A stretch of DNA of 32,000 nucleotides. Origin: Thermodesulfobacterium commune DSM 2178 (lineage in GTDB: Bacteria > Desulfobacterota > Thermodesulfobacteria > Thermodesulfobacteriales > Thermodesulfobacteriaceae). The notes under the pieces are model-generated. The model was not told the DNA's origin, ran no database searches, and saw only the letters and a program-made list of their open reading frames with translations. Shown in pieces: positions 1,742-18,204 of the stretch (position 1 is the stretch's first letter; each line of letters opens with the position of its first letter). The translations under genes were made by a program, and so were the position numbers. Location: NCBI RefSeq assembly GCF_000734015.1, contig NZ_CP008796.1:1320001-1352000 (forward strand). Reading direction: 5' to 3'.

Positions 1742-1767
1742 GTAAGTATTATACCCTTACCCCCTTC

Positions 1768-1886: not shown

Positions 1887-1891
1887 AAAGA

Positions 1892-1953: not shown

Positions 1954-1958
1954 ATTCA

Positions 1959-1996
1959 GAAAATATTGCTTGTTTTTCTTTTTTAAATTGTATAAA
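1959..1996 (+). promoter_or_regulatory. Candidate late promoter, copy 1 (motif GAAAATATTGCTTG plus -10-like TATAAA)
   Basis: Exact 14-mer at 1959-1972, shared with 3420-3433 and 13487-13500. An internal TTGCTT is -35-like. TATAAA lies at 1991-1996 after a 19-nt spacer. The ATG at 2005 has no SD. Confidence 0.5.
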
Positions 1997-2004
1997 GTTG
2001 CAAT

Positions 2005-2316
2005 ATGCAAGTTATAGAACGAGATACTATAAAGAGCATTATTCAAAATATCAATATAATCCTTACCACTCCTAAAGGTTCAGATCCTCACAGACCTTTA
2101 TTTGGTTCAAATATTTGGCAATTTATAGATCAACCCTTAACTGTTATAACAAGAGGACGTATCAAGGCTGAAATTATTGAAGCAATTGAGACTTGGGAAC
2201 CACGAGTAGAGATTGAAGAAGTTTATCTTCAAAGGGATTATTCGAGCTTGCGTATAATTATAAAATATAAAATTAAAGAAACAGAAACAATACAGACGCA
2301 GGAGATAACTTTATGA
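2005..2316 (+). CDS. Baseplate wedge protein, GPW/gp25 family
   Basis: 103 aa. It carries the typical gp25/W pattern: IIQNINIILTTPKGSDPHRPLFGSNIW...AIETWEPRVEI. Confidence 0.8.
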   Translation: MQVIERDTIKSIIQNINIILTTPKGSDPHRPLFGSNIWQFIDQPLTVITRGRIKAEIIEAIETWEPRVEIEEVYLQRDYSSLRIIIKYKIKETETIQTQEITL

Positions 2317-3410: not shown

Positions 3411-3419
3411 TTCTTTTTT

Positions 3420-3456
3420 GAAAATATTGCTTGCTTCTTTTTTTATAAGGCATAAT
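3420..3456 (+). promoter_or_regulatory. Candidate late promoter, copy 2
   Basis: Exact 14-mer at 3420-3433. TTGCTT lies at 3427-3432, followed by an 18-nt spacer and CATAAT at 3451-3456. The ATG at 3465 has no SD. Confidence 0.55.
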
Positions 3457-3464
3457 CTATTGCT

Positions 3465-4160
3465 ATGATGGATATAAGACTATCTTTTCAGTATAGCTCG
3501 TTGAGAGAGACAGAAGAATATGTTGAATTTGATGTTATTGCAATAACAGCTTCAGTTATAAATAGACCTTTTGGGAAAATTGAATTTCCTGAAGAGGTCT
3601 TAAAAGCTTCAGCACATACCTTGATTGGGAAACCCTTATTAATTGATCTTAGATATTCAGTTGAAGCTATAGTTGGAACTGTGGTTGATGCTAAATATTC
3701 AGAAGAAAAGAAAGGAATTGTAGCAACAGTCAAGATACCAAAAGCGGGTCATGAGAAATTAATTGGTTTAATCAAGATGGAACCTTCGCCAATCAAAAAT
3801 GTTTCAGTAGGAGTAGTAGTAGAAACTGAAGACAAAAATGGATTGCAAAGAGTAATAAAAGCTGAATTTAAAGAGTTATCTTTAGTGATAGAAGGAGCTG
3901 ACCCTAATGCTACAAGACTTAGCTCTCAGGATACCTCTCATTGGTGGGATGATCCAGATCTAAGACAAAAGGCTCCACGTGATTATTTTCTTGACCCATC
4001 ATCTCGCAGATATCCATATAAGACATGGGAAGGGGAAATTTCTTGTGAAAGATTAAAGGCTGCAATGAGTTTAGCTGGGTTACATGGACATAGACAAATA
4101 TATGATAGGGCAAAAGCCCTATATGAAAGACATTGTAAAAAGGAGGGTGCAAATGATTGA
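3465..4160 (+). CDS. Prohead protease-like / scaffold-associated protein (HK97 S78-like layout, non-canonical active site)
   Basis: 231 aa. The pattern GKPLLIDLRYS..IVGTV..KKGIVATVKI...NVSVGV...ELSLVIEGADPNA parallels the S78 prohead protease layout. It lies upstream of the scaffold and capsid genes. Confidence 0.5.
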   Translation: MMDIRLSFQYSSLRETEEYVEFDVIAITASVINRPFGKIEFPEEVLKASAHTLIGKPLLIDLRYSVEAIVGTVVDAKYSEEKKGIVATVKIPKAGHEKLIGLIKMEPSPIKNVSVGVVVETEDKNGLQRVIKAEFKELSLVIEGADPNATRLSSQDTSHWWDDPDLRQKAPRDYFLDPSSRRYPYKTWEGEISCERLKAAMSLAGLHGHRQIYDRAKALYERHCKKEGAND

Positions 4161-4575
4161 AAAATTTACTAAAGAAGTTGTAGAAGTAATGTCAAAAGAA
4201 GAATTGCAAGAAGCTGTCTTAACTCTTCAGCTTAAACTTGAAACTGCAGAAAAGGAAATTGAAAGGCTAAAAGTTGAAGCAGAAATTGGAAAGAAATATC
4301 TTGAATACTTAAGAGCTGAAGCAAAAAGGCTAATCAATTTAGTTCATAAAGAATCTCCACTTTTAAAACTTGTTGATAATGCTGATGTAGATACTTTAAA
4401 GCAGATAATTGATGATTTCAGTAAAAAGGCAAAAGAAATATATAAGCCATCTTCTACTTTTGCTACTGATACACAAAAAGAACCTCTTCAACTTACAAAA
4501 GAAGATTTAATGAAGATGAGTTATAAAGACCTTCTTAAATTAGCTGAAACTTTTAAAACTAAGGAGTTAGCTTAA
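4153..4575 (+). CDS. Scaffolding protein (coiled-coil)
   Basis: I chose the ATG at 4153 because AAGGAGGG lies 5 nt upstream; the track start at 4084 would overlap the previous gene by 77 nt. The sequence is E/K/L-rich with heptad character and sits directly before the capsid region. Confidence 0.55.
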   Translation: MIEKFTKEVVEVMSKEELQEAVLTLQLKLETAEKEIERLKVEAEIGKKYLEYLRAEAKRLINLVHKESPLLKLVDNADVDTLKQIIDDFSKKAKEIYKPSSTFATDTQKEPLQLTKEDLMKMSYKDLLKLAETFKTKELA

Positions 4576-4838
4576 TGAAAGAGGAAAAATTTCTTTTAAG
4601 AGGGGAGCTTGAAGAAATAAAAGATAGACTTTCTGTTCTTTATTATGAATTAAAAGGGAAAACAGCTATTTTTTATCAAAAGGCTTATGACCTTACTAAT
4701 ATTGGAATTGTTACTTATCAAGATGAAGTAAGTGAGATTACTAAATTAATTGAGGAAATAGTAAGTTTAAAGAAGGAAATTAAAGCCCTTGAAGAGAGGG
4801 CTGAATATTTAAAAAGAAAACTTAAGGAGGTGCAATAA
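4575..4838 (+). CDS. Hypothetical coiled-coil head-module protein
   Basis: 87 aa. AAGGAG SD upstream. The ATG overlaps the previous stop, and its own stop overlaps the capsid ATG. Confidence 0.5.
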   Translation: MKEEKFLLRGELEEIKDRLSVLYYELKGKTAIFYQKAYDLTNIGIVTYQDEVSEITKLIEEIVSLKKEIKALEERAEYLKRKLKEVQ

Positions 4839-5737
4839 TGCCAGTAACAGGTGCAACCTTACCAGAACTTTTTCCTCTCTATTATGAGAGGAAACTTTTG
4901 GAGTATATAAAAGCTAATTTAGTTGCAACAAAGTATGGGCAAAAGTTTTCTATGCCTGTTCATTCTGGAAGGACTGCGGTGTGGACAAGGTTTCAGCCTT
5001 TGAATCCAGTAACAACTCCGATTACCTTTCAGCCTACTCCTACAACTGGAGCAAGCATGGCAACTCAGCAGGTTCAGGCAACTATAGAAGAATACGCAAA
5101 CTACATTGAACTTGATGAGTTTACCGATATCACAAGCTTTGTCCCCCTTGTTGATCAGGCAACTGATTTACTTTCTTATAATGCTCAAATGTCTCTTGAT
5201 GCAATAGCGATGGCTGAACTAACAAGTGGGACAAATGTTTTATATGCAGGTGGTGTTTCTGGAAGGTCAGCTTTAGATGGCACAAAAAAGCTATCTAAAT
5301 CTGATATTAGAAAAGCTATCAATATCCTTAAAAGAAATAATATTCCACCTTTCCCAGATGGTTATTATGTAGTGCTAATACATCCTGACAAAATGCTTGA
5401 CCTTTTTACCGATACCGAATTAATCCAGCTTGCTATTACCTCTAAAGATATTTTTGAAAAAGGAGTCGTTGGTCAATATGGGGGAGCAAAGTTTGTAGAA
5501 TCTACTACTTTACCTATTTTAACAGGTGCTGGTGGTGGTTCTCCAGTCGCAGATGTCTATCAAACTGTTGTTCTTGGTATGAACGCTTATGGAGTAGTTG
5601 ATATTGATGGTAAAAGCGTTCAGATGGTCTTTACCAATGTTGATAAACTTGGAAGAGTCAAAACGATTGGATGGAAAGCATATTTTGCTTGTAAAAGATT
5701 ATATGAGCCGGCTATTGTAAGAATAGAATCAAACTAA
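4838..5737 (+). CDS. Major capsid protein (HK97 fold; N4-gp56-like family)
   Basis: 299 aa with an AAGGAGG SD. The N-terminus MPVTGATLPELFPLYYERKLLEY...GRTAVWTRF and the size are typical of this capsid family. It lies after the scaffold gene. Confidence 0.75.
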   Translation: MPVTGATLPELFPLYYERKLLEYIKANLVATKYGQKFSMPVHSGRTAVWTRFQPLNPVTTPITFQPTPTTGASMATQQVQATIEEYANYIELDEFTDITSFVPLVDQATDLLSYNAQMSLDAIAMAELTSGTNVLYAGGVSGRSALDGTKKLSKSDIRKAINILKRNNIPPFPDGYYVVLIHPDKMLDLFTDTELIQLAITSKDIFEKGVVGQYGGAKFVESTTLPILTGAGGGSPVADVYQTVVLGMNAYGVVDIDGKSVQMVFTNVDKLGRVKTIGWKAYFACKRLYEPAIVRIESN

Positions 5738-5750
5738 GCGAGGTGAAAAT

Positions 5751-5930
5751 ATGAAAGTATTAATAAAGCAAGACACAACTATATGGGTAAATGGAAAACC
5801 CTATGAATTTAAAAAAGGGATACAAGAAGTAGATGATGATATAGCGATTATTCTTATTGAGTCTAAGAATGCTGAAAAGCAGGAGGAAACCGATGCCAAG
5901 AAAACCAAAAAATCCGAAGCCCAAACCTAA
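5751..5930 (+). CDS. Small hypothetical protein (59 aa) missing from the ORF track
   Basis: ATG at 5751 preceded by GAGGTG. It translates to MKVLIKQDTTIWVNGKPYEFKKGIQEVDDDIAIILIESKNAEKQEETDAKKTKKSEAQT, with the stop at 5928-5930. It fills the gap between the capsid and connector genes on the operon strand. Confidence 0.5.
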   Translation: MKVLIKQDTTIWVNGKPYEFKKGIQEVDDDIAIILIESKNAEKQEETDAKKTKKSEAQT

Positions 5931-5933
5931 GAA

Positions 5934-6263
5934 ATGGTAACAATTGAGGAAGTAAAAAGTTTTTTGCAAGTAGCAGGGGCAGACTTTGATGATACAAAAA
6001 TTGCTAATGCCCTTGAAAGGGCGTTAGCAAGGGCAAAAAAACTTTTAAAAGTAGATATCTTGCCAGAAACTGCCGAGATAAAACAAGCCTTAATATTACT
6101 TGCGGTTGCTGAACTGGCAACAGAAATAAATCTTTATTACAGAGGGAAAGAAAATGTAATGATTTTACGAACAAAGGATGTAGTTGCTGAAGCTGAAAGA
6201 CTTCTTGGATTAATGCCAGAAAAGGAGCCTTTGAAGTGGGTTTCAATAAAGACAGATTCTTAG
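5934..6263 (+). CDS. Head-tail connector protein (gp6-like, Phage_connect_1 type)
   Basis: 109 aa. The N-terminus TIEEVKSFLQV..ADFDDTKIANALERALARAKKLL matches the typical gp6-like pattern. Confidence 0.65.
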   Translation: MVTIEEVKSFLQVAGADFDDTKIANALERALARAKKLLKVDILPETAEIKQALILLAVAELATEINLYYRGKENVMILRTKDVVAEAERLLGLMPEKEPLKWVSIKTDS

Positions 6264-6469
6264 CCTTAAATATTGAAATACTAAAATTTATGTTAAATGA
6301 GGCTTTTCAAAAAAGAAAACATGTTAAGTGGGATTTTCTTTATCGGGAATTTTCGGAATATTCAAAAGAGGAGATAGATTTCTCTATTCGCTATCTTAAA
6401 GACAAAGGTTATTTAATTGATTTTGAGATAACCGCTAAAGGAGTAGATGAAGTTTTGAAATGGATATAA
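6236..6469 (+). CDS. Hypothetical protein (possibly a small winged-helix-like protein)
   Basis: 77 aa. GTG start at 6236 with AAGGAG 9 nt upstream. The C-terminus YLKDKGYLIDFEITAKG resembles a wHTH, but only weakly. Confidence 0.4.
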   Translation: MGFNKDRFLALNIEILKFMLNEAFQKRKHVKWDFLYREFSEYSKEEIDFSIRYLKDKGYLIDFEITAKGVDEVLKWI

Positions 6470-6879
6470 AAGAATTTGAAGCATACATTAAAGAATTACC
6501 GGTTAAGCTCAATAAAGCAGTAGTGCAATCGTTACATCAGGCAGCACAGGAAACAGAATCAAGGCTTTCAAGAATTTTTAAATCGGAGGGAAGGTCAGAA
6601 GGGGTTGAGTGGTCTCCTTTGAAAGAGGCTTATCTTAAATGGAAAATCAAGAAAGGTTTTTCAGAGAAAAAATTGCATAAAACTGCAACATTAGCCCAAA
6701 GCTTTAACTCAATCGTAAACGAAACTTCAGCAGTTGTCGGGACACCTGTTCCTTATTCTGTTTATCATGAATTTGGGACAAGAAAGATGCCAGCTCGACC
6801 ATTCATGGAACCAGTTTTTAATACAATGGTTAAAAGACTTGAAAACATTTTTAACAAAAACTTAGCAGAGGTGTTTTAA
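6460..6879 (+). CDS. HK97 gp10-family head-tail joining / neck protein
   Basis: 139 aa. It carries the family hallmark YHEFGTRKMPARPFMEP. Confidence 0.7.
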   Translation: MDIKEFEAYIKELPVKLNKAVVQSLHQAAQETESRLSRIFKSEGRSEGVEWSPLKEAYLKWKIKKGFSEKKLHKTATLAQSFNSIVNETSAVVGTPVPYSVYHEFGTRKMPARPFMEPVFNTMVKRLENIFNKNLAEVF

Positions 6880-7359
6880 ATGCTCATAGAATTTGAAGAA
6901 GCAATTTTGCAAAGGTTAAAAGAAGAAGGAATAAGTAATGTTCAGGGTTGGTCTGGTAAGGCAGAAGAATTATTTATGAAGCCCAAAACCTATCCTGCAG
7001 TTCGTTATGTTTTTGAAGGTCTTGACTTGCAAGAAACTCTTGCTCCAAACATCTATAATAGCATAATACGGGGTTCTCTTATAGTCTTTTTTCAAAGTTT
7101 AAAAGAAAAAGGGCAAGGAGCTTATCCAATTCTTGAAACCATTTTAAATGCTCTTATGTGGCAAGAATTAAATGGTTATATGGTTGAGATAAAAAAGATA
7201 GAACTTCTTTTCCATGAGAGCATAGATTTTGCCTATCAAGTGAGACTTGAAGCTTATGGTAAATATATTGTGCCTTTTGAGGAAAAAGAGATATTAACAA
7301 CAAGAATTACAACCTATGAGGGAGAAGAATTATCAACAGATGTTAAAAAGGAGGGCTAA
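6880..7359 (+). CDS. Hypothetical neck / tail-completion protein (position of Mu gp37-like protein)
   Basis: 159 aa. The ATG is adjacent to the previous stop. The functional call is by synteny, two genes upstream of sheath. Confidence 0.4.
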   Translation: MLIEFEEAILQRLKEEGISNVQGWSGKAEELFMKPKTYPAVRYVFEGLDLQETLAPNIYNSIIRGSLIVFFQSLKEKGQGAYPILETILNALMWQELNGYMVEIKKIELLFHESIDFAYQVRLEAYGKYIVPFEEKEILTTRITTYEGEELSTDVKKEG

Positions 7360-7362
7360 GAT

Positions 7363-7557
7363 ATGAGATATAGAGTAAAACTAAGCTATCCTACTATTTT
7401 AATGATCGGGCAAGAAGAGTATCGGCTCTTTCCGGGTCAGGAGGTTGAACTTCCTGAATCCGCCGAGGTGGTTAAGACTTACGAGGGGCTTGGCTACCTT
7501 GAGCCTTTGCCAACAAAACCTAAAACCACCAAAAAGGAGGTAAGCGATGCCAGCTAA
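7363..7557 (+). CDS. Small hypothetical protein (position of FluMu gp38-like protein)
   Basis: 64 aa with an AAGGAGGG SD. It lies immediately upstream of the sheath gene and overlaps it. K/T-rich tail. Confidence 0.45.
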   Translation: MRYRVKLSYPTILMIGQEEYRLFPGQEVELPESAEVVKTYEGLGYLEPLPTKPKTTKKEVSDAS

Positions 7558-8812
7558 TTACTTGCATGGCGTTGAAACCATAGAAATAGTAAAGGGACCA
7601 ATCCCGGTCAGGGAAGTAAAATCGGCGGTCATCTTCTTGGTCGGGACAGCTCCGGTGCATCTAACTAAGCCCGCAGGTGTCTCCGAAGCTGACTGGTATG
7701 CCCAGACGATTAACAACCCCGTTTTAGTCCTGAGAAGGGAGGACGGCATAACCTACTTCGGCGATGCCACTCCGGGCTACACCATCCCCTATGCACTTGA
7801 TGCCATTTTTGATCACGGAGGCTCAACCATCATCGTGGTTAATGTCTTTGACCCAAGAAGGCATAAAGATGCAAGCGGAAACCCTGACCCCTCAACCGTT
7901 ATCCAAGCTGACATCATCGGCACATACGACCCGACAACCGGCAAACGCTCAGGACTAAAAGTAATCGACGAGCTATACAGCCGGTTTGGCTTCACCGCAA
8001 AGCTAATCCTTTGCCCGGTTTATTGCGAGTCTCCGGGTGTTATGGCAGAGATGATAGCCCTTTGCGAAACTCATCGTGCTTTAGCTTTAATTGACGCCCC
8101 AGCTGGCTTGACCCCTCAGCAAGTAATCAACGCTCGTGGAGCAGGCGGTCAGCTTAACACTTCTGCTTACAGGGCGGTTATCTGCTACCCCCACCTTAAA
8201 GTCTACGACACCGCAACCAACTCTGAACGCCTTGAACCTTTCAGCCAGCGCTTAGCGGGAGTTATAGCCAAAGTAGACCACGAGGAGGGATACTGGTATT
8301 CTCCATCCAACCATGAGATACTCGGCATAATCGGAGTAGAGCGCCCCATCACCTGCGCCATAAACGACCCAAACACCGAAGCAAACATCTTGAACGAAAA
8401 CGGCATAGTCACGGTCTTTAACAGCTTTGGAACAGGCTACAGGGTTTGGGGCAACCGCTCTGCCGCCTGGCCAACTAAATCCGACCCGAAAAACTTTATC
8501 TCAGTCCGCAGAACCGCAGACATCATCGCTGAAAGCATAGAGTATGCAACTTTGCAGTTTCTGGATAAGCCCATCACTGTGGCTATCGACGGGGTGCTTA
8601 GCATGGTCAATGCTTTTATACGCACCTTAATAGGCAGAGGTGCCCTCGTTGACGGCAAATGCTACTTTCTCAAAGACAAAAACCCAGAGACCAACCTTGC
8701 AAACGGACACCTTACCTTTACTTACGAGATAATGCCACCCACTCCAGCGGAACGCATAACCTTTGAGCAGGTGATAAACATAGAACTACTTAAAAAATTA
8801 GTAGGAGGTTAG
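7547..8812 (+). CDS. Contractile tail sheath protein
   Basis: 421 aa with an AAGGAGG SD. The N-terminus YLHGVETIEI..GPIPVREVKSAVIFLVGTAP is typical of Mu gpL / P2 FI sheaths. The tube gene follows. Confidence 0.8.
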   Translation: MPANYLHGVETIEIVKGPIPVREVKSAVIFLVGTAPVHLTKPAGVSEADWYAQTINNPVLVLRREDGITYFGDATPGYTIPYALDAIFDHGGSTIIVVNVFDPRRHKDASGNPDPSTVIQADIIGTYDPTTGKRSGLKVIDELYSRFGFTAKLILCPVYCESPGVMAEMIALCETHRALALIDAPAGLTPQQVINARGAGGQLNTSAYRAVICYPHLKVYDTATNSERLEPFSQRLAGVIAKVDHEEGYWYSPSNHEILGIIGVERPITCAINDPNTEANILNENGIVTVFNSFGTGYRVWGNRSAAWPTKSDPKNFISVRRTADIIAESIEYATLQFLDKPITVAIDGVLSMVNAFIRTLIGRGALVDGKCYFLKDKNPETNLANGHLTFTYEIMPPTPAERITFEQVINIELLKKLVGG

Positions 8813-8816
8813 AGCT

Positions 8817-9335
8817 ATGGCTATTGAAATCAGCAAGGTATTTAATGCAAGAGTATACATAGATGGCACAGATTTTATTGGGAAGGCTGAAGAAGTAGAC
8901 CTCCCCAAAATCAAATTCAAGTTTGCAGATACAAAAGCACTTGGTATTTATGCAGATAGCGAGCTACCAACAGGACTTGATAAGCTTGAAGCAAAAATAA
9001 AATTTAATTCAGTTTATCCTGAATTTATAGCGCTTGCCTCTGACCCTTTTACTGCAAGAACTGTTATCATTAGAGCTCCATACCAAGTTTGGGCTCAACA
9101 AGGCGTAATAAAGACTGCCCCACTAAGGGCAGAGCTAAGAGGTTTCTTCAAAGAATCAGATAGTGGCAAACTTAAAAAAGCAGACTCAGCAGAAGCTGAA
9201 GCAACTATGTCTGTTATCTATTATAAGCTTGAAATAGATGGACAGGAAATCATAGAAATAGATGTGCTAAATAATATTTATAAGATAAAAGGCGAAGATA
9301 AGCTAAGAGATTATACTCAAGCGATAGGAGGTTAA
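8817..9335 (+). CDS. Tail tube protein (P2 FII / Mu gpM-like)
   Basis: 172 aa with an AGGAGG SD. The pattern NARVYIDGTDFIGKAEEVDLPKIKFK...LGIYADSELPTGLDKLEAKIKF matches the major tube protein pattern. Confidence 0.75.
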   Translation: MAIEISKVFNARVYIDGTDFIGKAEEVDLPKIKFKFADTKALGIYADSELPTGLDKLEAKIKFNSVYPEFIALASDPFTARTVIIRAPYQVWAQQGVIKTAPLRAELRGFFKESDSGKLKKADSAEAEATMSVIYYKLEIDGQEIIEIDVLNNIYKIKGEDKLRDYTQAIGG

Positions 9336-9339
9336 ACAA

Positions 9340-9606
9340 ATGGCTGAGAAAACACAAGCTAAAGAGATTATACTTTCTGATGGACGCAAAGCTGTCATAA
9401 AAGATGGTAAAGGAAGGGACCTTTTTGAAGCAATGAGACTTGCATCTGAACCTGGAGAAATTTCAAAGATGCTTTTAGTTAGACTTGTTGAGATAGATGG
9501 TAAACCTATAACTGAAGATGATATAGATGAATTACCTCTTTCTGATGCTGTAAAGCTTCTTGATGCAATGAGTGATTTACTCCCTTTCACCCGAACTCAG
9601 AAATAA
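9340..9606 (+). CDS. Tail assembly chaperone (P2 gpE / lambda gpG analogue), zero-frame product
   Basis: 88 aa with an AGGAGG SD. It lies between the tube and tape measure genes. The C-terminal ITEDDIDELPLSDAVKLLDAMSDLL is typical of this chaperone family. Confidence 0.7.
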   Translation: MAEKTQAKEIILSDGRKAVIKDGKGRDLFEAMRLASEPGEISKMLLVRLVEIDGKPITEDDIDELPLSDAVKLLDAMSDLLPFTRTQK

Positions 9607-9731
9607 TTTTAAGTTTAATATATCATGGCTTTAGTTATCATGACCTGAAAGAAATGAGTATTGGTGAGATTTTATTTTGGGCTAAAGAATTAGGAAAAGA
9701 CACTTGTCAAGAGAATTGTGTCTCCTTATAA
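9576..9731 (+). pseudogene. -1 frame extension of the tail assembly chaperone (E'/T-like); 3' end displaced by the IS insertion
   Basis: The -1 frame reads ..HPNSEIILSLIYHGFSYHDLKEMSIGEILFWAKELGKD, then runs into the IS and stops at 9729-9731. The likely original tail YILLPRKILRKN-TGA lies at 11024-11062. Confidence 0.55.
9582..9588 (+). promoter_or_regulatory. -1 programmed ribosomal frameshift slippery heptamer C CCT TTC
   Basis: The X XXY YYZ heptamer is in register with the chaperone frame (codons CCT at 9583 and TTC at 9586). The -1 frame is open from 9576. Confidence 0.6.
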
Positions 9732-11023
9732 AATCTCTTTACAAACATTTGCCTCAATTCGTATAAAGCAGACTTAATTAAAGGAAGTGGTTTTTGCCAT
9801 CTCGTTTTCTGAATCCGACTTACTGTTATGTATATCGCAACCTCTGCTGTCTTGATTGATTGAAAATATCCCCCTGTATTTACCCTTATCAGCTCTATCC
9901 TGCTATTTATATTCTCAACCACATTCGTCGTGTATATATACCTCCTCACCCCCTCAGGATATTTCTTATAAACAAAATAATGCTCCTTCTTTTTCAAAAG
10001 TCCCTTTATATAAGCTGGATACTTCTTCTCATAACTCTTACATAATTCCTCAAATCTAATTAAGGCCCTCTCATACTCCTCTATCCTCTTTATAATGCTT
10101 AACTCCTCATAAAATTTTTTAGCATCCTGCTTAGACATGTTCCTGTTGATGTTCCTTTGCATGTGTACAAAACAAAGCTGATGATCTGTCTCAGGAAAAA
10201 GGGCTTTTATGGCTTGAGCAAGGCCAGGAAAATCATCACTCACTATTACCATAACCCTCTTAACTCCCCTCTTTATCAAATCATTAAGTATCTGGAGCCA
10301 GTCCTCCTTCGTCTCTGAACCAAAATAAATGTAATAAGAAAGTAAATTTTTTCTTCCCTCCATATCTATTCCGATGATATTATAAATAACTGCTTTTCTG
10401 ATTCTGTTGGCTTCGGTATCTTTTATCTGAGTATGATAAGCGTCTATAAACATAGCAAACAAATTTTCTGGCAATTCTTTGGTTTTTAATTCTTTGGCTT
10501 GGTTATACAATTCTTCTTTAATTTCTTCTATTTGTTCTGGAGAGTAGGGAAGTTTCATAGATTGCAAGAGGGCTTTGATTTTATTGGGGGAGTAGCTTTG
10601 GAGAACGAGGTTAAGGATAAAGTCCTGGAAAGATTCATCAGCTTTTTGCCATTCAGGAGGAAGAATAGCAGGTCTGAATTCAGATTTTCTATCTCTTGGG
10701 ACAGAGATACCAAGGTTACCTAAGAAACAGGCAAGTTGTCTTTCATAGTAACCATTAGCTTTATTATCAATACTATCTCTAAGGAATATTTCTCTTTCTT
10801 TTTTCATGAGAGCGTTTAAGAGGAGTGCAGCAGCCATTTTGATACCCTCTTTTGATTCAATTTTTGAGATTTCACTTAAAACTTTTTCTAAATCTAAGTC
10901 TAAGTTTTTCATTTTACAGACCTCCTGGTTAGTTTAGTCTTTTAGGTTTTATGTTATCATTAATTTAAAAAATATTAAAAATTTTTATTATGCCTCTAAA
11001 ATATTTTATTAAAAGACACAATT
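9704..11023 (-). mobile_element. IS256-family insertion sequence (boundaries +/- ~10 bp)
   Basis: Single transposase ORF. Imperfect terminal inverted repeats lie at 9714-9737 and 11000-11023 (19/24 match, with the outer 10 bp AATTGTGTCT perfect). The size of about 1.31 kb is typical of the family. Confidence 0.8.
9707..10912 (-). CDS. IS256-family (mutator-type) transposase
   Basis: 401 aa with an AGGAGG SD. Family pattern: VSDDFPGLAQAIKALFPETDHQLCFVHMQRN...YTTNVVENINSRI. Confidence 0.9.
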   Translation of the reverse strand: MKNLDLDLEKVLSEISKIESKEGIKMAAALLLNALMKKEREIFLRDSIDNKANGYYERQLACFLGNLGISVPRDRKSEFRPAILPPEWQKADESFQDFILNLVLQSYSPNKIKALLQSMKLPYSPEQIEEIKEELYNQAKELKTKELPENLFAMFIDAYHTQIKDTEANRIRKAVIYNIIGIDMEGRKNLLSYYIYFGSETKEDWLQILNDLIKRGVKRVMVIVSDDFPGLAQAIKALFPETDHQLCFVHMQRNINRNMSKQDAKKFYEELSIIKRIEEYERALIRFEELCKSYEKKYPAYIKGLLKKKEHYFVYKKYPEGVRRYIYTTNVVENINSRIELIRVNTGGYFQSIKTAEVAIYITVSRIQKTRWQKPLPLIKSALYELRQMFVKRFYKETQFS

Positions 11024-11068
11024 TATATTCTACTCCCTAGGAAAATTTTACGAAAAAATTGAACAATA

Positions 11069-13486
11069 ATGGAAAAGATATTTCAGCTTGCTATACTTTT
11101 TAAAACCATAGATCAAGCAACCCGTCCTATTCGGGAGATTCAGAAAGCAACACAAGCTTTACAAGAGACAGTAGAAAAAACTGCTTCAAAGTTTGCACAG
11201 TTTAAAGAAAAAATAGAAGGATTTGAAAAGAAGGCTCTCTCTATAGAAGGTTTAGTTTCTACAACTGCATGGGTTGGTGCTTCAAAAACTATTCTTGGTT
11301 CCTTTATGGAGCTTGAAGATGCATCATTGAGGCTTAAATCAACTTTTATGGAATCAGGGGGCGTTGTCCCAGAAGTTTTTACCAAAATAGATGAAGAGGC
11401 AAAAAAACTTGGTGCAGAATTACCTGGAACTACTGCAGATTTCTATCGTCTTGCTGCCGTTATGAGACAGCTTGGTGTTGAAGAAGATATTTTGGCAAGT
11501 GGTGGTCTTAGAGCAGCTGCCTATCTTGGAGCTGTATTAAATATCCCTTATGAAGTGGCTGGAGAACATGTCGCTAAATATAGACAAGCATTAGGAATAG
11601 TAGGTAAGGATCTTATACAATTTATTGATCTTATTCAAAGACTGGGTCATCTTGGTGTAAAACCAGGTGAGATGGCTTATGCCTTTTCAAAATTATCTGG
11701 AACTTTAAAACTTTTAGGCTGGCAAGGGCTTGAGTTTGCAAAAGAGCTTTCTCCTATTATTGCAAGATTTATTCAATTGGGTATGTCAGGAGAAACAGTA
11801 GGAACAAATTTAAGTAGGATTTTTACACAAATGTTACATCCTAAAAAATTACATGAATTTACTTCAAATCTTGCTCAATTTGGTATCAAATTAGAGTTGA
11901 TAGATGAAAAAACAGGCAAACTAAAAGGACCAGCTCAACTTATTGCTGAATTCAATAAGATTAAAGAAGCGTATGAAAAAGGTATAATCTCACAAAAGCA
12001 GCTTTATGAAATTGCTAGCAAATTAGCCGGAGAGGAAGGTGAAGACTTACATATGTTAATGACAATTATTCTTGAAGGCGCAGAGAGCTATAACAAAATG
12101 TCTGATGCAATACGAAAACAAGCTGATTTACAACAGCGTATAGGTGTAATAACGAATTCTCTTCGTAACGTGTGGGAAGCTTTCACAGGGACATTGCAAA
12201 ATGTCTTTGCTATTGTTGGCTCAACTCTCGCTCCAACATTAAAGAAGATTGCTGATTTTCTAAACGATCTTGCTGATAACATAGGACAATTTCTTGAAAA
12301 GCATAAAACTCTTGCAAGCATTATAGGCTGGTCAATTGGAGGTTTTGCCCTTTTCACTGTAGGCATAATGGCAACTGCAGGAGCTATTGCTGCAATCATG
12401 TTCCCACTCAAGACATTTATATGGATATTAGGAACATTAGGTCCATTGATGCGAGGAGCGGGTATAGCAACAGGTTTTTTCAGAAATCATTTATTACATG
12501 CTTTACCTGCAATTTGGGCAAAAATCAAAGCTTTAACTATTTTATCAGCTCAGATGGCAAGAATGGCATTTACTGGTTTAATTTCGGGGCTTAAGTCAGT
12601 TATTCTTGCAGTTAGAGCTTTAAGCATTGGGTTCTTTACATCTCCTATTGGCTGGTTTGCTCTTGGTATTATTGCTTTAATCGGCGTGGTTTATCTACTT
12701 TGGAGGCATTGGGATAAGGTTTCAAAAGCTCTATCTACCATCTGGAACTGGCTTAAATCTACATGGGAAAAAGTATCTAATGCTCTACTTACTGTCTGGA
12801 ACTTTCTTAAATCATCTTGGCAAAAAGTCCTTGAAGTCTTTATGTATATCCATCCTCTTGGTATTCTTTTTAAAGCCCTAAATAAACTCGTTCAATATGT
12901 ATTTGGATTGGACCTCTTTACTGCCGGCAAAAAAATTGTGGAGAGCCTCTGGAAGGGTATAGAAGTTCTTGCCATGAAGCCTGTTGAAGCCATGAAAAAC
13001 ATCGTCCAAAAAATAAGAAACCTTTTGCCCTTTAGCCCTGCCAAAGAAGGTCCTCTTGCAGACCTTCATAAAATCAAACTCATTGAAACCCTTGCTGAGG
13101 CAATAACTCCAGCTCCACTTATATATGCTATGACAAAAGCTGTTGAGCCAGTCAGAGCTATTACTCAGCCTTTAATTCAGCCCGTGAAACAGGTTCTTGA
13201 GCCAGTCAGAGCTATTACTCAGCCTTTAATTCAGCCCGTGAAACAGGTTCTTGAGCCAGTCAGAGCTATTACTCAGCCTTTATTTTCACCAACTTTGAGA
13301 TTGCCTGCTCCTGCAATACTTGGAGCCAGTGCAAGTCCTATAAGCATTCATGTTACGCAAAACATCACGTTTCAGCATGGTTCAATTTCTGAAAAGGAAA
13401 AAGAAGCTATAGCAATAGATTTGAAACGTGCTATAGAAAGAGTACTTGAGCAAATTAATTGGGATAAAACAAGAAGAGCATATTAA
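11069..13486 (+). CDS. Tail tape measure protein
   Basis: 805 aa, located after the chaperone. It has an alpha-helical N-terminal region, a hydrophobic glycine-rich central segment and an internal tandem repeat. Confidence 0.8.
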   Translation: MEKIFQLAILFKTIDQATRPIREIQKATQALQETVEKTASKFAQFKEKIEGFEKKALSIEGLVSTTAWVGASKTILGSFMELEDASLRLKSTFMESGGVVPEVFTKIDEEAKKLGAELPGTTADFYRLAAVMRQLGVEEDILASGGLRAAAYLGAVLNIPYEVAGEHVAKYRQALGIVGKDLIQFIDLIQRLGHLGVKPGEMAYAFSKLSGTLKLLGWQGLEFAKELSPIIARFIQLGMSGETVGTNLSRIFTQMLHPKKLHEFTSNLAQFGIKLELIDEKTGKLKGPAQLIAEFNKIKEAYEKGIISQKQLYEIASKLAGEEGEDLHMLMTIILEGAESYNKMSDAIRKQADLQQRIGVITNSLRNVWEAFTGTLQNVFAIVGSTLAPTLKKIADFLNDLADNIGQFLEKHKTLASIIGWSIGGFALFTVGIMATAGAIAAIMFPLKTFIWILGTLGPLMRGAGIATGFFRNHLLHALPAIWAKIKALTILSAQMARMAFTGLISGLKSVILAVRALSIGFFTSPIGWFALGIIALIGVVYLLWRHWDKVSKALSTIWNWLKSTWEKVSNALLTVWNFLKSSWQKVLEVFMYIHPLGILFKALNKLVQYVFGLDLFTAGKKIVESLWKGIEVLAMKPVEAMKNIVQKIRNLLPFSPAKEGPLADLHKIKLIETLAEAITPAPLIYAMTKAVEPVRAITQPLIQPVKQVLEPVRAITQPLIQPVKQVLEPVRAITQPLFSPTLRLPAPAILGASASPISIHVTQNITFQHGSISEKEKEAIAIDLKRAIERVLEQINWDKTRRAY
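13145..13282 (+). repeat. Perfect 54-bp tandem repeat (2 full copies plus 30 nt) inside the tape measure gene
   Basis: Units at 13145-13198 and 13199-13252 are identical. A third partial unit spans 13253-13282. The repeat encodes EPVRAITQPLIQPVKQVL. Confidence 0.95.
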
Positions 13487-13500
13487 GAAAATATTGCTTG
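13487..13500 (+). promoter_or_regulatory. Candidate late promoter / activator site, copy 3
   Basis: Exact 14-mer GAAAATATTGCTTG, starting 1 nt after the tape measure stop and 49 nt upstream of the SD-less ATG at 13536. The -10 element is less clear than in the other two copies. Confidence 0.45.
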
Positions 13501-13535
13501 TTTTTATTAAATCTCATTGCATACATTAAAAATGT

Positions 13536-14234
13536 ATGATAAAAGAGCTAATACAACCTTCTATAAAACTTTTAGCGCATTTAGTCGAATCTGCAGACCC
13601 TTATTTTGCAAAACTTCTTGAAGAGACTATAAAGGTTTTAATCTATAGCAGGATAGATGAACTCCCTGAAGAAGTTTTAGATACCTTAGGCTGGCAATTC
13701 CACATTGAAGGCTTTGACCAAGCCCAAACCGTTCAGGAAAAACGCAACTTAATCAAGCATGCCATCGAGCTCCACAGATACAAAGGAACACCCTACGCAG
13801 TTAAGAAGGTATTTCAAGCCCTAAACTTAGAGGCTGAGCTCTCCGAATGGTTCGACTACAACGGCGACCCATACAAGTTTAAAGTGCTCGTTAAAAACAT
13901 CATACAAGACGAAGACACATATTTGAGGCTAATCGAACTAATCAACGAATACAAAAATGTCCGCAGCTGGCTTGACGTAATCGGCTTCCATCGTGAATAC
14001 AGCCAAACCCTCTACTATGCCTTTGCCCAGAAAAACGGAAAGCATTATCAAATCGGTTTGCATACAGACACATCTGTTGAGCCTTATACCCTTTACGCCG
14101 GTCTTACCCAGAGAGTTGGAACATCTTACCAGATAGGCTTATACGAGCCCCAGACATCCGTTGAGCCTTATACCATTTACGCTGGCTCCGCCCAGAGGAT
14201 TGCAAGCTACATGGCTATATATCCAGCTAATTAG
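13536..14234 (+). CDS. Baseplate/tail protein, P2 gpI family
   Basis: 232 aa. The pattern LIQPSIKLLAHLVE...LPEEVLDTLGWQFHIEGFD...EKRNLIKHAIELHRYKGTPYAVKKVF matches the Tail_P2_I pattern. The fibre gene follows. Confidence 0.7.
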   Translation: MIKELIQPSIKLLAHLVESADPYFAKLLEETIKVLIYSRIDELPEEVLDTLGWQFHIEGFDQAQTVQEKRNLIKHAIELHRYKGTPYAVKKVFQALNLEAELSEWFDYNGDPYKFKVLVKNIIQDEDTYLRLIELINEYKNVRSWLDVIGFHREYSQTLYYAFAQKNGKHYQIGLHTDTSVEPYTLYAGLTQRVGTSYQIGLYEPQTSVEPYTIYAGSAQRIASYMAIYPAN

Positions 14235-14244
14235 GAGGTAAGGA

Positions 14245-15600
14245 ATGGCAGACTTTAGAGGCACGATACTAACCACAAAAGGAAGAAACCTTTTAGCCAA
14301 AGCCCAAACCGGAGCCCAACTAAGATTTACTCAAATAAAACTTGGTGATGGACTTTGGCCTTCAAACACAGACCCAACGCAACTAAACGACCTCGTTTCT
14401 CCCAAGCTAAATCTTCCTATACAAAGCATTACCGTTGTAGGGGACGGAACAGTCAGGCTAAGGTTCGTTCTAACCAATAGAGGACTTTCTCAGGGCTTCT
14501 TCATGCGAGAAATCGGTATTTACGCTCAAGACCCCGATCTTGGCGAAATCCTTTATGCGGTAGCCTATGCAGGAGATAGGGCAGACTTTATTCCTGCTGA
14601 CGGCGTCACCAAAGTTGAAAATGTAGTCGACATCTATACCGTCATTGCCAACGCCCAAAATGTCACCGCTGTAATCTCCGATACGGTTGTCCTTGCGACA
14701 AAACGAGATATAGACGAGCTTGCGGAGACGCTAAGCAACCTAAGCTCTCAGGTTAACTCACAAATAACCTCTCAGATAGACAACCTTTCTCAGCAACTAA
14801 ACGACACTGCATCAACACTAAGCACCCAGATTTCTACAGTCAAACCCGAAGCTGGATCCACAGCCCCAAGCTTGACCTACACAGGGAAGCTCTGGGTCGA
14901 TGCAAACGATTTCCTGCAATACTTCGACGGCTCAAACTGGAAAAATGTAAAAGCGTCCTTCGCCGACACCGTCGACGGCTTCCACGCAAGCCAAACCCCC
15001 GCTCCGAATGTGATAGTGCCTCTGAATGTAGAGGGGATTTTGGATTTGAGTGCGACTTATGTGAAGAGTAATGTGTATACATTTAGAAGAGTTGATTTGA
15101 CGAATGCGACGAGTGATTATATGTTGCAAGTTGGGGAAGAAGCAATAATAAATTTTACGGACGCTACAAGTGTTCCGTTGAGGATTGCGACGCAGAGTAG
15201 GACTTATTATGAGGTGCATTTGGTTAGTAGTAATACGGGTGGGACTTCGGGTGCAGTGGATAGTAATATATTTTTAAATCCCAACAATACAACTTATAGT
15301 AATGCTTTTGTATATGCTCAGATATACAGACAATCAGATGCATTATATTCAGACTATATGACTTATAACGCTTTTCGGTGTGGTATAGCTTTTTCAACCT
15401 CCATTTTTTATATAACAAACTATACACAATATAAGAATGTTAAAGGATTTTATGATACATGGGGGTATTCTTACTATTATCCGAGAATAACCGTTTTCTC
15501 AACTGACTGGCGAGATACAACAACGCCGTGGACTTCTCTCGGAACAATTACGTTTCCTCAATCATCTTCAGGCTACATCTTAGTTAGGAGGTTAGCATAA
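14245..15600 (+). CDS. Tail fibre protein (P2 gpH-type N-terminal collar domain)
   Basis: 451 aa with an AGGAGG SD. The N-terminus MADFRGTILTTKGRNLLAKAQTGAQLRFTQIKLGDG is the typical tail-collar fibre N-terminus. It also has a Ser/Gln-rich coiled segment and a divergent C-terminal domain. Confidence 0.75.
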   Translation: MADFRGTILTTKGRNLLAKAQTGAQLRFTQIKLGDGLWPSNTDPTQLNDLVSPKLNLPIQSITVVGDGTVRLRFVLTNRGLSQGFFMREIGIYAQDPDLGEILYAVAYAGDRADFIPADGVTKVENVVDIYTVIANAQNVTAVISDTVVLATKRDIDELAETLSNLSSQVNSQITSQIDNLSQQLNDTASTLSTQISTVKPEAGSTAPSLTYTGKLWVDANDFLQYFDGSNWKNVKASFADTVDGFHASQTPAPNVIVPLNVEGILDLSATYVKSNVYTFRRVDLTNATSDYMLQVGEEAIINFTDATSVPLRIATQSRTYYEVHLVSSNTGGTSGAVDSNIFLNPNNTTYSNAFVYAQIYRQSDALYSDYMTYNAFRCGIAFSTSIFYITNYTQYKNVKGFYDTWGYSYYYPRITVFSTDWRDTTTPWTSLGTITFPQSSSGYILVRRLA

Positions 15601-16046
15601 TGAAAGTATGGGCTTATATTCATCCAGATTTGAAGATACTTTGCTGTGCCTTACTACCTGAAGCAGTGCCAGAATGTGTTGAAGCCGTAGAACTTGAAGT
15701 AGAAAGTCCTGATGATGTAGTGCTTGTTAATGGGCAAATTAGACTGAAAACAGAAGCAGAAAAGTTGCAAGAAGAGAAGCAGAGGAAACTTACAGAGTTA
15801 AAAAACTATGTAGCAAGCATGCTTGAACAGACAGATTACATTATAACGAAGATAGCAGAAGCTCAGATACAAAACGACACCGCAGAAGTAGAAGCCCTCA
15901 AGCAAAAATACTCAATCCAACTCCAGCAGCGAGAAGCAATCCGAGCTTGGAATGAGCAGATGAAGCAAGCCATCAAGAACGCCCAATCTCTTGACGAACT
16001 CCTCAGCCTTGAAATCAACTTCAAGGAGCCCACGAATGTTTCTTAA
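15600..16046 (+). CDS. Tail fibre assembly protein / chaperone
   Basis: 148 aa. Its ATG overlaps the fibre stop, with an AGGAGG SD. Position and coiled-coil C-terminal half are typical of Tfa-like proteins. Confidence 0.55.
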   Translation: MKVWAYIHPDLKILCCALLPEAVPECVEAVELEVESPDDVVLVNGQIRLKTEAEKLQEEKQRKLTELKNYVASMLEQTDYIITKIAEAQIQNDTAEVEALKQKYSIQLQQREAIRAWNEQMKQAIKNAQSLDELLSLEINFKEPTNVS

Positions 16047-16105
16047 ACTACTTAGCATCCTTTTTGCCCTCTCCCTCTCTCCTTCATAACAAAATGAGAT
16101 GAACC

Positions 16106-16579
16106 ATGATTAACAAAGTTATCCTCATTGGGAGGCTTGGAGCAGACCCCGAGCTCCGCTTCACTCTTGACGGAAAGCCTGTAGCCACAATGCGCATTGC
16201 CACGAACGAGGTTATAAACCGTGAAGGAACCAAAGAAACTCTCACGGAATGGCATAGGGTGGTTGCCTTTGGAAGGCTTGCCGAAATCTGCGGAGAATAT
16301 TTAGAAACAGGTTCACAAATCTATGTGGAAGGCTCACTCCGCTACCGAAAGGTCCTCGATAGATCCGGCTTTACTCGTGTCATCCCTGAAATCTTTGCCG
16401 AAACAATCAAATTTTTATCCAAACCAGCTCCTAAAGATCATACTTTCTCTTACCAAGAAAGCCCTATTTCAACCCAATCTACCTCTTCAGACCTACCTCT
16501 TAGCTATTCCAGCGATGATTTTGCCACTCAAGACCCACGCTTACTCTTTAAAGATGACCTCGACGACCTACCTTTCTAG
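16106..16579 (+). CDS. ssb: Single-stranded DNA-binding protein
   Basis: 157 aa. OB-fold N-terminus VILIGRLGADPELRF...WHRVVAFGRLAE, a low-complexity linker and an acidic tip DDLDDLPF. Confidence 0.9.
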   Translation: MINKVILIGRLGADPELRFTLDGKPVATMRIATNEVINREGTKETLTEWHRVVAFGRLAEICGEYLETGSQIYVEGSLRYRKVLDRSGFTRVIPEIFAETIKFLSKPAPKDHTFSYQESPISTQSTSSDLPLSYSSDDFATQDPRLLFKDDLDDLPF

Positions 16580-16967
16580 CAATTTCCATGCCCAAACCCT
16601 TCAAAATTGCCCCAAAAAACATGTCAATTTTTTAGAATTTTTTGACATCTACAAACTTAGAATTCATAAGCCCTCCCAGACATCCCCCTTCCCAATTGAT
16701 ATTCCTTTTGACATATCTCTTTTTGTAACAAAGTTTCTCTCTATCTACAAGCCCTACGCCAAATCTAATATTCTTACTTTTTATGCTATGTCCCACTCTT
16801 TCCCATCTTATCCTTCTTTGCCCTCACATTTTGCAAAACTATGTAATAAGCCCTTTCTCTCCACAACCTTGTTATACAATTACCCTGTCCCGCCCTTTCC
16901 CACCTCATCCCTCTGCCTAATTTTTTAGCACATTATCCCACGCCAAAGCACACCAAAACACGGAAAT
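16580..16967 (+). other. G-depleted, C-rich noncoding tract
   Basis: By hand count, nt 16621-16980 contain 27 G and 111 C. No credible ORF on either strand. It contains the palindrome ATGTCAA-N14-TTGACAT (16621-16648) and three copies of AAGCCCT. Confidence 0.6.
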
Positions 16968-17039
16968 CCTCAACTTTTTTCCTGGAATTTCCTCAACCAA
17001 ATTCCTGGAATTTCCTCAACTTTTTTCCTGGAATGAACA
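16968..17039 (+). repeat. Three abutting 23-bp direct repeats at the prophage terminus (candidate transposase end-binding sites / attR)
   Basis: U1 = 16968-16990, CCTCAACTTTTTTCCTGGAATTT. U2 = 16991-17013, CCTCAACCAAATTCCTGGAATTT. U3 = 17014-17036, CCTCAACTTTTTTCCTGGAATGA. ACA follows, so the bottom strand reads 5'-TGTTCATTCCAGG. Confidence 0.7.
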
Positions 17040-18204
17040 TAGAGATAGTATAACTGATATTTTGACCCTGTAGATTTAAAGGAGTTGAGGTAACTTTTCT
17101 CCTAAAATACTCTATAAATTCTATAAATGCTCTTTTGTCTGAATAAAGGATCAAGACTACGAATTCTTCCCCGCCAAACCTGGCTACTATGTCTTCTTCT
17201 CTTTTAAAGGTTTCTTTTAGTTTTTCAGCCAAATCTTTTAATACTAAATCTCCTACTTCATGACCGTAAGTATCGTTGATTTGTTTAAAATTATCTATAT
17301 CTATCACCAAACAAGCCAGGTTCAAATTTCTTCTTTTGGCTATACTTAGAAATTTAGGGGCTTCTTCCATAAAATATCGTCTGTTATAAAGCCCTGTAAG
17401 TGGGTCATGATAGGCTAAAAACTCAAGTTCTTGTATTAACTCTATGAGGTCCAAGGTGTTGTGCACTCTTACCATAAATTCTTCTTGACTAAAAGGTTTT
17501 CTCAAAAAATCATTGGCCCCTGCCTTTAGTAAAACAGGTATCATTTTGGTTTTTACTATGCCTGAAACGACTATAATCCCTAACGCACTTTTAGAATAAC
17601 CCCTCCTAATCTCGTAAAGAAACTCCAAGGTATCTTCTTCTGGAAAATAATAATCAAGTATCAGTAGTTTAATTTGAGGGTCTTCCTTAAGTATTTTTTG
17701 AGCTTCCCTAAGGCTTGAGGCTTCTACAACCTGAAAAAGCATATTTTTTAAAATGTTTGCAATAATCTTTCTATCAACAGGCATATCTTCTACCACTAAA
17801 ACTTTAGTCTGAGAATTTTTAAGGGTCCTTTTTATACTAAGAATTAGATTCTCGACAATATTTGGGGTTCCTTTTACTAAATAGTCTACTACCCCTTTAT
17901 CCAAAATAGATTCTCTTAAGTTTTCGTCATATGAAGCGGTTAAAACTATCGTAGGGACGTTATGAGACAGCAAAAAATCGATAGCCTCACCTTTTTCTGC
18001 ATCTGGAAGATGATAATCACACACCGCAAGCCCGATGTTTTGCCTTTCCTTTTTCAAGCATTTTTGGGTCTCTGATAGGTTTTCTGCAGTAATTACCGGT
18101 AAAGAAAGCCTTTGAGAAATAAGCTTGGAGACAGCCTTTAATATAATCCTATCATCATCTACTAAAAGGATCTTGTTCTTTTGACAAGGCAACGTATCTT
18201 GCAT
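16993..18204 (-). CDS. PleD-like response regulator diguanylate cyclase (REC-REC-GGDEF); 3' end truncated and fused to prophage terminal repeats
   Basis: 403 aa with two receiver domains and a GGDEF domain containing GGEEF. The domain stops at ..NISYTISM, and the last 14 residues FIPGKKLRKFQEFG are read from the 23-bp repeats. Confidence 0.8.
   Translation of the reverse strand: MQDTLPCQKNKILLVDDDRIILKAVSKLISQRLSLPVITAENLSETQKCLKKERQNIGLAVCDYHLPDAEKGEAIDFLLSHNVPTIVLTASYDENLRESILDKGVVDYLVKGTPNIVENLILSIKRTLKNSQTKVLVVEDMPVDRKIIANILKNMLFQVVEASSLREAQKILKEDPQIKLLILDYYFPEEDTLEFLYEIRRGYSKSALGIIVVSGIVKTKMIPVLLKAGANDFLRKPFSQEEFMVRVHNTLDLIELIQELEFLAYHDPLTGLYNRRYFMEEAPKFLSIAKRRNLNLACLVIDIDNFKQINDTYGHEVGDLVLKDLAEKLKETFKREEDIVARFGGEEFVVLILYSDKRAFIEFIEYFRRKVTSTPLNLQGQNISYTISMFIPGKKLRKFQEFG

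Follow-up and report, generated by a model that had tools for sequence, protein, structure and literature searches.

The closest described systems

The closest described systems are phage Mu, the Bcepmuvirus phages BcepMu and phiE255, and Tn7 together with the type V-K CAST transposons. In Mu, the attR sites R1-R3 are reportedly packed together while the attL sites L1-L3 are spread out, an arrangement credited to Craigie, Mizuuchi and Mizuuchi in 1984. Thermodesulfobacterium commune is a thermophilic sulfate reducer with growth near 70 °C. The window analysed here is the whole stretch of 32,000 nucleotides taken from strain DSM 2178 (contig NZ_CP008796.1, positions 1,320,001 to 1,352,000). A survey of sulfate reducers counted one prophage computationally in this strain (PMC8146710); neither "Mu-like" nor "transposable" occurs in the main text of that survey. 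Our literature search found no paper linking Thermodesulfobacterium with Mu-like phages. We are highly confident that three 23-bp units in the window are the right-end (attR-type) sites for the MuA/TnsB-family transposase of a 34.3-kb Mu-like prophage. The element is a new, divergent, thermophile-borne member of the transposable phages and not a new kind of system.

The prophage shares with Mu the TG...CA tips, the 5-bp target duplication and three repeats of about 22-23 bp per end, packed at the right and spread at the left, where one terminal and two internal sites are found. As in Mu, the left part carries the repressor and early genes and the right part the tail fibres, and a predicted DDE transposase, an AAA+ partner, Gam, Mu gp27 and MuF are encoded (the GemA-like match is weak). 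The repeat sequence, however, is unrelated to that of Mu, the transposase shows neither BLAST-level similarity to deposited phages nor a Pfam rve match, the repressor is S24/LexA-like, and an SSB gene adjoins the right end. The tail genes are scattered, with U/X/D/V before terminase, W/J after MuF and I/H after the tape measure, and the host, a member of the Thermodesulfobacteria, is thermophilic. BcepMu and phiE255 resemble the prophage in combining Mu-type transposition genes with a P2-like contractile tail and in a broadly similar head and tail gene order; its sheath is 47.6% identical to phiE255 gp13. They differ from it in early genes that face the other way, in transposase lineage and in end sequences, and the baseplate genes are dispersed in this prophage. 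Like Tn7 and type V-K CAST, the prophage has multiple end repeats of about 22 bp, TGT...ACA tips, a 5-bp duplication, a partner ATPase resembling TniB/TnsC and a transposase whose profile aligns almost full length to TnsB. Unlike them, it has phage content, no TnsA, TniQ or Cas12k, and dispersed targets with no fixed attachment site.

Right end and the interrupted diguanylate cyclase gene

Features are listed with window coordinates; L085 is the left-arm locus of the same strain described in the next section.

1-17039, plus strand: right half of the prophage, MuF through SSB, then the repeat end
9699-11037, minus strand: IS256-family insertion sequence, 1,339 bp, with a Mutator-type transposase gene at 9707-10912
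16106-16579, plus strand: SSB gene, the last before the right end (gene table)
16928-17039, plus strand: right-end segment, 112 bp, consisting of GCACATTATCCCACGCCAAAGCACACCAAAACACGGAAAT, then the three units, then the tip
16968-16990, plus strand: unit U1 (R3), innermost repeat, CCTCAACTTTTTTCCTGGAATTT
16991-17013, plus strand: unit U2 (R2), CCTCAACCAAATTCCTGGAATTT, with spacer CAAATT in place of TTTTTT
17014-17036, plus strand: unit U3 (R1 by Mu convention), terminal putative transposase-binding-type repeat, CCTCAACTTTTTTCCTGGAATGA
17037-17039, plus strand: prophage tip ACA, with the 3'-terminal CA at 17038-17039; the bottom strand begins 5'-TGTTCATTCCAGG
17040-17044, no strand: TAGAG, right copy of the 5-bp target-site duplication (left copy at L085 4656-4660)
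16993-18204, minus strand: host response-regulator diguanylate cyclase gene (REC-REC-GGDEF), truncated, 403 aa; host part 17040-18204
L085 11963-12847: MuB-like AAA+ ATPase gene, directly after the transposase gene (phrog_296, AAA_22, TniB)

The initial annotation, made from the letters of the window, had described three 23-bp units of exact period with U1 and U3 identical at 21 of 23 positions, an array ending in a CA tip at 17039, and a GGDEF gene that had lost its 3' end. Each of these descriptions held up. Direct reading and TRF (3.0 copies, score 108) agree on a period of exactly 23 bp with the units head-to-tail, the 21/23 identity was reproduced, and the end at 17039 coincides with the point where homology stops in the six right junctions described below. 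Each unit is bipartite (CCTCAAC-N6-CCTGGAAT), and with up to 3 mismatches this pattern matches U1-U3 and nothing else in the 32-kb window. U3 read from the tip inward gives ATTCCAGGAAAAAAGTTGAGGAA at tip positions 6-28. With this 23-mer as consensus and up to 6 mismatches, the window matches are again U1-U3 only, and both strands of the window plus L085 (54 kb) contain no copy outside the two ends. Rfam, promoter and terminator scans of 16000-17300 gave nothing meaningful. The array region is AT-rich, and other short repeats are present in it.

The 403-aa gene product has two receiver domains and a GGDEF domain whose Pfam match covers no more than positions 1-127 of a profile with 161 positions. 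U3 and U2 supply the codons of the C-terminal 14 residues, FIPGKKLRKFQEFG, and the stop codon also comes from the phage end. A protein search found an intact orthologue (P0001) of 423 aa and 99% identity, which continues ...SIGGALELKNSLREMLFIADNNLYKAKKQGKNCVVV where the truncated cyclase has its FIPGKK... tail. The C-terminal continuation of P0001 (...ISYTISIGGALELKNSLREMLFIADNNLYKAKKQGKNCVVV) is the ending of all other orthologues too, and the repeat-encoded tail is absent from it. The DNA of the intact locus (L003) diverges from the window exactly at 17039/17040: it reads ...TATACTATCTCTATCGGAGGAGC..., and the window reverse strand reads ...TATACTATCTCTATGTTCATTCCAGG... at the junction. The intact gene in L003 has a single TAGAG (CTCTA), and in the prophage-free relative an intergenic region and then the 16S rRNA gene follow the intact gene. 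The REC-REC-GGDEF gene of this strain is thus truncated because the prophage inserted into it. The insertion costs the cyclase its last ~34 residues and adds the 14-residue repeat-encoded tail. One c-di-GMP synthase has probably been lost.

Left junction and limits of the prophage

The left arm was reached via P0157, the NCBI T. commune DSM 2178 member of the 90% cluster of the transposase. It lies on a 22-kb locus (L085) of contig JQLF01000011.1 in the draft assembly GCA_000746435.1 of the same strain. Over 17,479 bp, a second locus of this assembly (L002) has the same sequence as the window (100% identity), and a Logan contig (L001), which is overlapped by the end of L085, is 100% identical to window positions 1-9726.

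The initial annotation had expected four things at or around the far end of the element: inverted copies of the units next to a TG tip, the missing 3' fragment of the GGDEF gene, a duplicate of the TAGAG at 17040-17044, and MuA/MuB-like genes. All four were recovered with L085. Its positions 4050-4660 are the missing part of the intact locus (96% identity); directly adjoining the prophage end, they cover the 3' fragment of the GGDEF gene, together with the intergenic region and the first part of the 16S gene. The left junction reads ...GCTCCTCCGA-TAGAG/TGTTAAATCTACTAAAAAAGTTTAGGAA (slash at the junction) or, in a longer reading, ...GCTCCTCCGA TAGAG / TGTTAAATCTACTAAAAAAGTTTAGGAAGG. The left tip, TGTTAAAT, begins with TG at L085 4661. 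TAGAG, present once in the intact gene, occurs twice around the element, at L085 4656-4660 directly before the left TG and at window 17040-17044. The terminal A of the right tip is conserved in six independent junctions, so the A at 17039 is assigned to the element by alignment and the duplication is read as 5 bp, not 6.

The element therefore spans from 5'-TG (L085 4661) to CA-3' (window 17039). Joined from the L085 draft contig and the window, it is 34,331 bp long (about 32,984 bp without the insertion sequence and its duplication) and reaches 17,291 bp beyond the left edge of the window. Aligned from their tips inward, the two ends agree in 22 of the outermost 28 positions and form a terminal inverted repeat. 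The right units abut at tip positions 6-28, 29-51 and 52-74, and the left units are found at 6-28, 82-104 (opposite orientation) and 135-157. These three are the only consensus matches in L085 (up to 6 mismatches), all within 157 bp of the left TG tip and about 34 kb from the right array. The terminal units of the two ends, U3 and L1 (L085 4666-4688), have the same register, 6-28 from the tip.

Transposition genes of the left arm

The genes of L085 include those for an S24 repressor, a 647-aa transposase, a 294-aa MuB-like ATPase and Gam; a GemA-like match is weak (E=5e-4) and falls short of the Pfam cut-off. Phage_Mu_Gam, Phage_Mu_Gp27, terminase, portal and SLT were matched by Pfam in the left arm or in relatives. 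The 647-aa protein carries HTH_17 at residues 7-53 and HTH_23/28 at 111-148 (Pfam) and matches phrog_310 "transposase" over residues 5-549 (E=3.6e-38). A profile built from 17 homologues aligned almost full length to CAST TnsB (E=5.6e-12), followed by MuA (4fcy, E=1.6e-6) and the MuA core (1bcm, 0.017). Three residues, D259, D326 and E381, are invariant in the family at spacings of 67 and 55. In MuA the D-D-E spacing is 67 and 56. D259 pairs with the first catalytic-type D (GD(G) of MuA, CD(H) of TnsB), and D326 and E381 pair with the YTDGGK and VVERPF motifs of TnsB. Distant homologues carry Mu-transpos_C (PF09299).

The 647-aa protein has no Pfam rve match, and a tblastn search of it against 50,697 deposited phage records returned no relative; for these reasons its assignment to MuA/TnsB rests on the profile searches. 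The empty tblastn search also makes the lineage a divergent one. The protein is predicted to be a DDE transposase of the MuA/TnsB family, and it appears to lie between MuA and Tn7/CAST TnsB, closer to TnsB in the profile searches. The adjoining ATPase matches phrog_296 "DNA transposition protein" (E=1.9e-31), AAA_22 (1.1e-16) and TniB (6.5e-8). The MuA/MuB-like pair expected at the left end is thus represented by this predicted transposase and its AAA+ partner.

Copies of the right end at other sites

A metagenome scan for two units within 33 bp gave 28 contigs, five of which contain the full three-unit array (L071, L074, L076, L077 and L083). The I-H-assembly-SSB module of the window is found in all five at 80-88% identity, and the SSB gene, the noncoding stretch and the repeats travel together in them. 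The last 112 bp are almost invariant across the six copies (window and five contigs), and U3 is invariant in five of the six independent right ends (alignment). At all six right junctions similarity stops at the first base after GAACA. The flanks that follow (TTCTTT..., TTCAGA..., AGAGGG..., TGGAGA... and TCCTGG... in the contigs, TAGAGA... in the window) are mutually unrelated. One is the GGDEF gene of the window; by eye from the translations, another flank is intergenic, upstream of an apparent outer-membrane protein gene, and a further one is likely an IS256-like transposase gene. The six unrelated insertion sites mean that there is no fixed attachment site. The six independent insertions of this Mu-like lineage suggest activity in nature. 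L074 and L083 have the canonical tail gene order, and the right arm is therefore a module common to different phages.

Scans of the viral collection with the tip, the two-unit pattern and the repressor found nothing, and a generic tip pattern gave a single match there, on a 380-kb contig and presumably by chance. In the genome collection, from which the source strain is absent, the GGDEF 3' fragment had 0 matches and the two-unit pattern 11, all of them chance matches and none in Thermodesulfobacterium.

Alternative explanations

The array could terminate a non-viral transposon of the TnsB type, Tn7-like or other, with the phage genes as mere cargo. CAST TnsB ranks before MuA as the best solved-structure match of the transposase profile, the partner ATPase also matches TniB, and the TGT...ACA tips and 5-bp duplication are those of Tn7. 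What the ends enclose, however, is the layout of a complete phage, with no other content; TnsA, TniQ/TnsD, a CRISPR module and a Cas effector are all missing from the gene tables of L085, L047 (a relative introduced below) and the window, and the unrelated insertion sites speak against a fixed target. We consider a transposon of this kind very improbable, and a Mu-like prophage is the reading that we retain.

Even smaller is the chance that a tyrosine or serine integrase uses the repeats as arm-type sites and that the junction is an attR made by site-specific recombination. Direct repeats beside prophage junctions are known in integrase systems too, and the initial annotation had named arm sites as the weaker alternative. 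That ranking proved right: no integrase or recombinase family is among the genes called in the left arm and the window, and the two junctions have only the 5-bp TAGAG in common, with no longer shared core. The tips are TG...CA with inverted repeats, and the same end is joined to six unrelated sequences, so that site-specific integration can be ruled out in practice. An array without function, produced by chance or slippage and located by coincidence at the breakpoint of a GGDEF deletion or rearrangement, would fit an AT-rich region with other short repeats, but we give it the same negligible weight. It is refuted by three observations: five contigs preserve the array almost unchanged although identity in the adjacent genes is just 80-88%, diverged inverted copies lie at the other tip 34 kb away, and a clean 5-bp duplication surrounds the element. 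The junctions, the target-site duplication and the transposase genes together support the view, put forward in the initial annotation, that the prophage was inserted by transposition into the diguanylate cyclase gene.

Proposed transposition and significance

Judged from sequence, the element displays all the testable defining features of a Mu-like transposable phage. These are TG...CA termini (left tip at L085 4661, right tip at 17039), a 5-bp target-site duplication (TAGAG), the pattern of several ~22-bp repeats at both ends and inverted between them, insertion at many unrelated sites (six different flanks), a predicted DDE transposase, a MuB-like AAA+ ATPase whose gene comes straight after that of the transposase, and Mu-type accessory genes with a full virion module, GemA being represented only weakly. 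From their position, copy pattern and conservation, we infer that the units are binding sites of the transposase. By analogy with Mu, the HTH domains of the transposase would read the two half-sites of each unit, and protomers bound to R1-R3 and to the left units would pair both ends. The transposase would then nick at the terminal CA and the 3'-OH ends would be joined to target DNA with a 5-bp stagger. The MuB-like ATPase may help in target capture and delivery, and lytic growth would proceed via replicative transposition.

For annotation, the borders of the prophage in T. commune DSM 2178 are fixed to the base, with movement by Mu-type transposition, and a Mu-like phage lineage is documented in the Thermodesulfobacteria. 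Conceptually nothing is added beyond the Mu paradigm. The interest is modest; it comes from a thermophilic host, a transposase that is divergent and TnsB-like, and ends defined to the base. Defined ends together with a transposase from a ~70 °C organism could be the start of a heat-stable in vitro transposition tool. The right end is found at different sites in several metagenomes, and the contig names match hot-spring datasets. That the prophage stands for a lineage of thermophilic transposable phages that is active at present and has not been described is a tentative idea, which we rate as possible and somewhat doubtful. If true, the base-defined ends would give a ready-made thermostable Mu-type transposition system, and the lineage might be an evolutionary bridge between transposable phages and Tn7-like transposons.

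Phage genes and relatives

The genes at window 64-16579 follow the order MuF, gp25-like W, baseplate J, protease, scaffold, major capsid, connectors, sheath, tube, IS256 insertion, tape measure, P2-I-like protein, tail fibre, fibre assembly and SSB. The Phage_Mu_F domain was found by Pfam in the window, and the sheath is ~48-51% identical to the sheaths of P2-like and BcepMu-like phages. The IS256 insertion is flanked by an 8-bp duplication, TAGGAAAA, at 9691-9698 and 11038-11045. It lies between the tube/chaperone genes and the tape-measure gene and is absent from the relative L024/L019. Owing to this insertion, this copy of the prophage may be unable to form virions, while its transposition may be unaffected.

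Among the relatives, L047 reaches 93% DNA identity across the MuF region and is closer than L018 and L021/L022. The part of L047 upstream of the late genes codes for an S24 repressor, a 647-aa HTH protein, an AAA_22/TniB ATPase and Gam, and also for gpU/X/D/V, Mu gp27, terminase, portal, SLT and spanin. In L018 the GemA-like match is weak, at E=0.0014, and does not reach the Pfam cut-off. Three further loci (L025, L027 and L028) have different ends, with lysis genes and CCCGTTCGG repeats adjoining tRNA-Ser, and share no homology with the window past 16077. The contigs of P0142 and P0145 are other, more distant elements.

A second motif, TTGCA-N6-7-TGCAA, was considered as a set of transposase sites and rejected: in L085 it lies 1.15-1.29 kb inside the left tip, and the L047 and L056 contigs have no identifiable tip. 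The motif is conserved at the left of L047 and L056, and one copy is present at 16831-16846 of the window.

Repeated sites near the prophage ends

Three copies of the palindrome TTGCA-N6-7-TGCAA were found approximately 1.15 to 1.29 kb inward of the left prophage tip (5812-5946 in L085, the draft-assembly contig of the same strain that carries this end). The sites are kept in two related contigs, L047 (135-269) and L056 (approximately 47-165), whose transposases are only 58% identical. A degenerate copy lies about 200 bp inward of the right tip (window 16831-16846) and is found too in L074 and L076, two metagenome contigs in which the same right end is joined to other flanks. These palindromes may serve as operators or as a Mu-IAS-like enhancer. 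The stretch that separates the left-end repeats from the first leftward gene holds arrays of 10-bp palindromes in L085 (4877-4954, five copies of GGTT(G/C)(G/C)AACC), L047 (335-400, TTACAACC) and L056 (357-587, 14 copies of GTTATAACC); the array position is kept among these relatives but the sequence varies. C-rich tracts, which are G-rich in the direction from the tip into the element, flank the 23-bp unit arrays at both ends (window 16789-16817 and 16886-16914; L085 4689-4740), and those in the window include a 29-nt direct repeat pair (TGTCCC.C.CTTTCCCA.CT.ATCC.TCT). A comparable C-rich stretch is found ahead of the right end of the related phage in L025.

Related phages in L025 (12088-12269) and L027 (approximately 5090-5271) have an end adjoining a tRNA-Ser(CGA) gene. 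The end repeats in these two contigs are different, with three copies of CCCGTTCGG(A/T)TTTT and one inverted copy, and lysis genes are found where SSB would stand.

Transposase and target sites

The 647-aa transposase of the prophage (P0157, L085 10001-11944) scores better against the TnsB of CRISPR-associated transposons than against MuA in profile comparison. It gave no rve match in Pfam, and a tblastn search of 50,697 phage records returned no match. In three of the six target flanks, the sequence AGATAG is found at +4 to +9 past the right tip (TAGAGATAG, TTCAGATAG and TGGAGATAG).

Positions of AGATAG in the target flanks
Window 17043-17048: AGATAG
L076 2393-2398: AGATAG
L083 12727-12732: AGATAG

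This may reflect a target preference reaching past the 5-bp duplication, six sites being too few to judge.

A second assembly (Logan contig of 20,071 bp) encodes a version of the interrupted host response regulator with 99% sequence identity (P0021). Because this protein is 231 aa long and contains the receiver domains only, it suggests that the gene was disrupted a second, independent time in that assembly.

IS256-family insertion and tail gene order

The prophage itself carries an insertion element flanked by an 8-bp duplication.

IS256-family insertion in the prophage
Window 9691-9698 and 11038-11045: flanking 8-bp duplication, TAGGAAAA
Window 9699-11037: IS256-family element of 1,339 bp, encoding a Mutator-type transposase of 401 aa

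The element is located about 90 bp past an 88-aa tail-chaperone ORF and 31 bp ahead of the tape-measure gene. It may have disrupted a frameshift-extended form of the chaperone and so made the prophage defective. Two draft-assembly contigs over this region (L001 and L002) both terminate within the element.

The tail and baseplate genes are dispersed (L085 14481-16613; window 2005-3410 and 13536-15600): gpU/X/D/V follow the early genes and precede terminase, W/J are flanked by MuF and the protease, and I/H are found past the tape measure. The same order is kept in L047 and in L018, a further related contig. L074 and L083, which have the right end in common with the prophage, display the canonical contiguous tail gene order. 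The tape-measure gene holds a perfect 54-bp tandem repeat of 2.6 copies (window 13143-13282), encoding the repeat peptide VRAITQPLIQPVKQVLEP. In a related viral contig, L028, long arrays of 20-24-bp repeats (7713-7989 and 8312-8541) were found about 2 kb upstream of a P2-I-like gene, with 11.5 copies of the array repeat TGTCACCCCGAGCACTCCCCTCTC.
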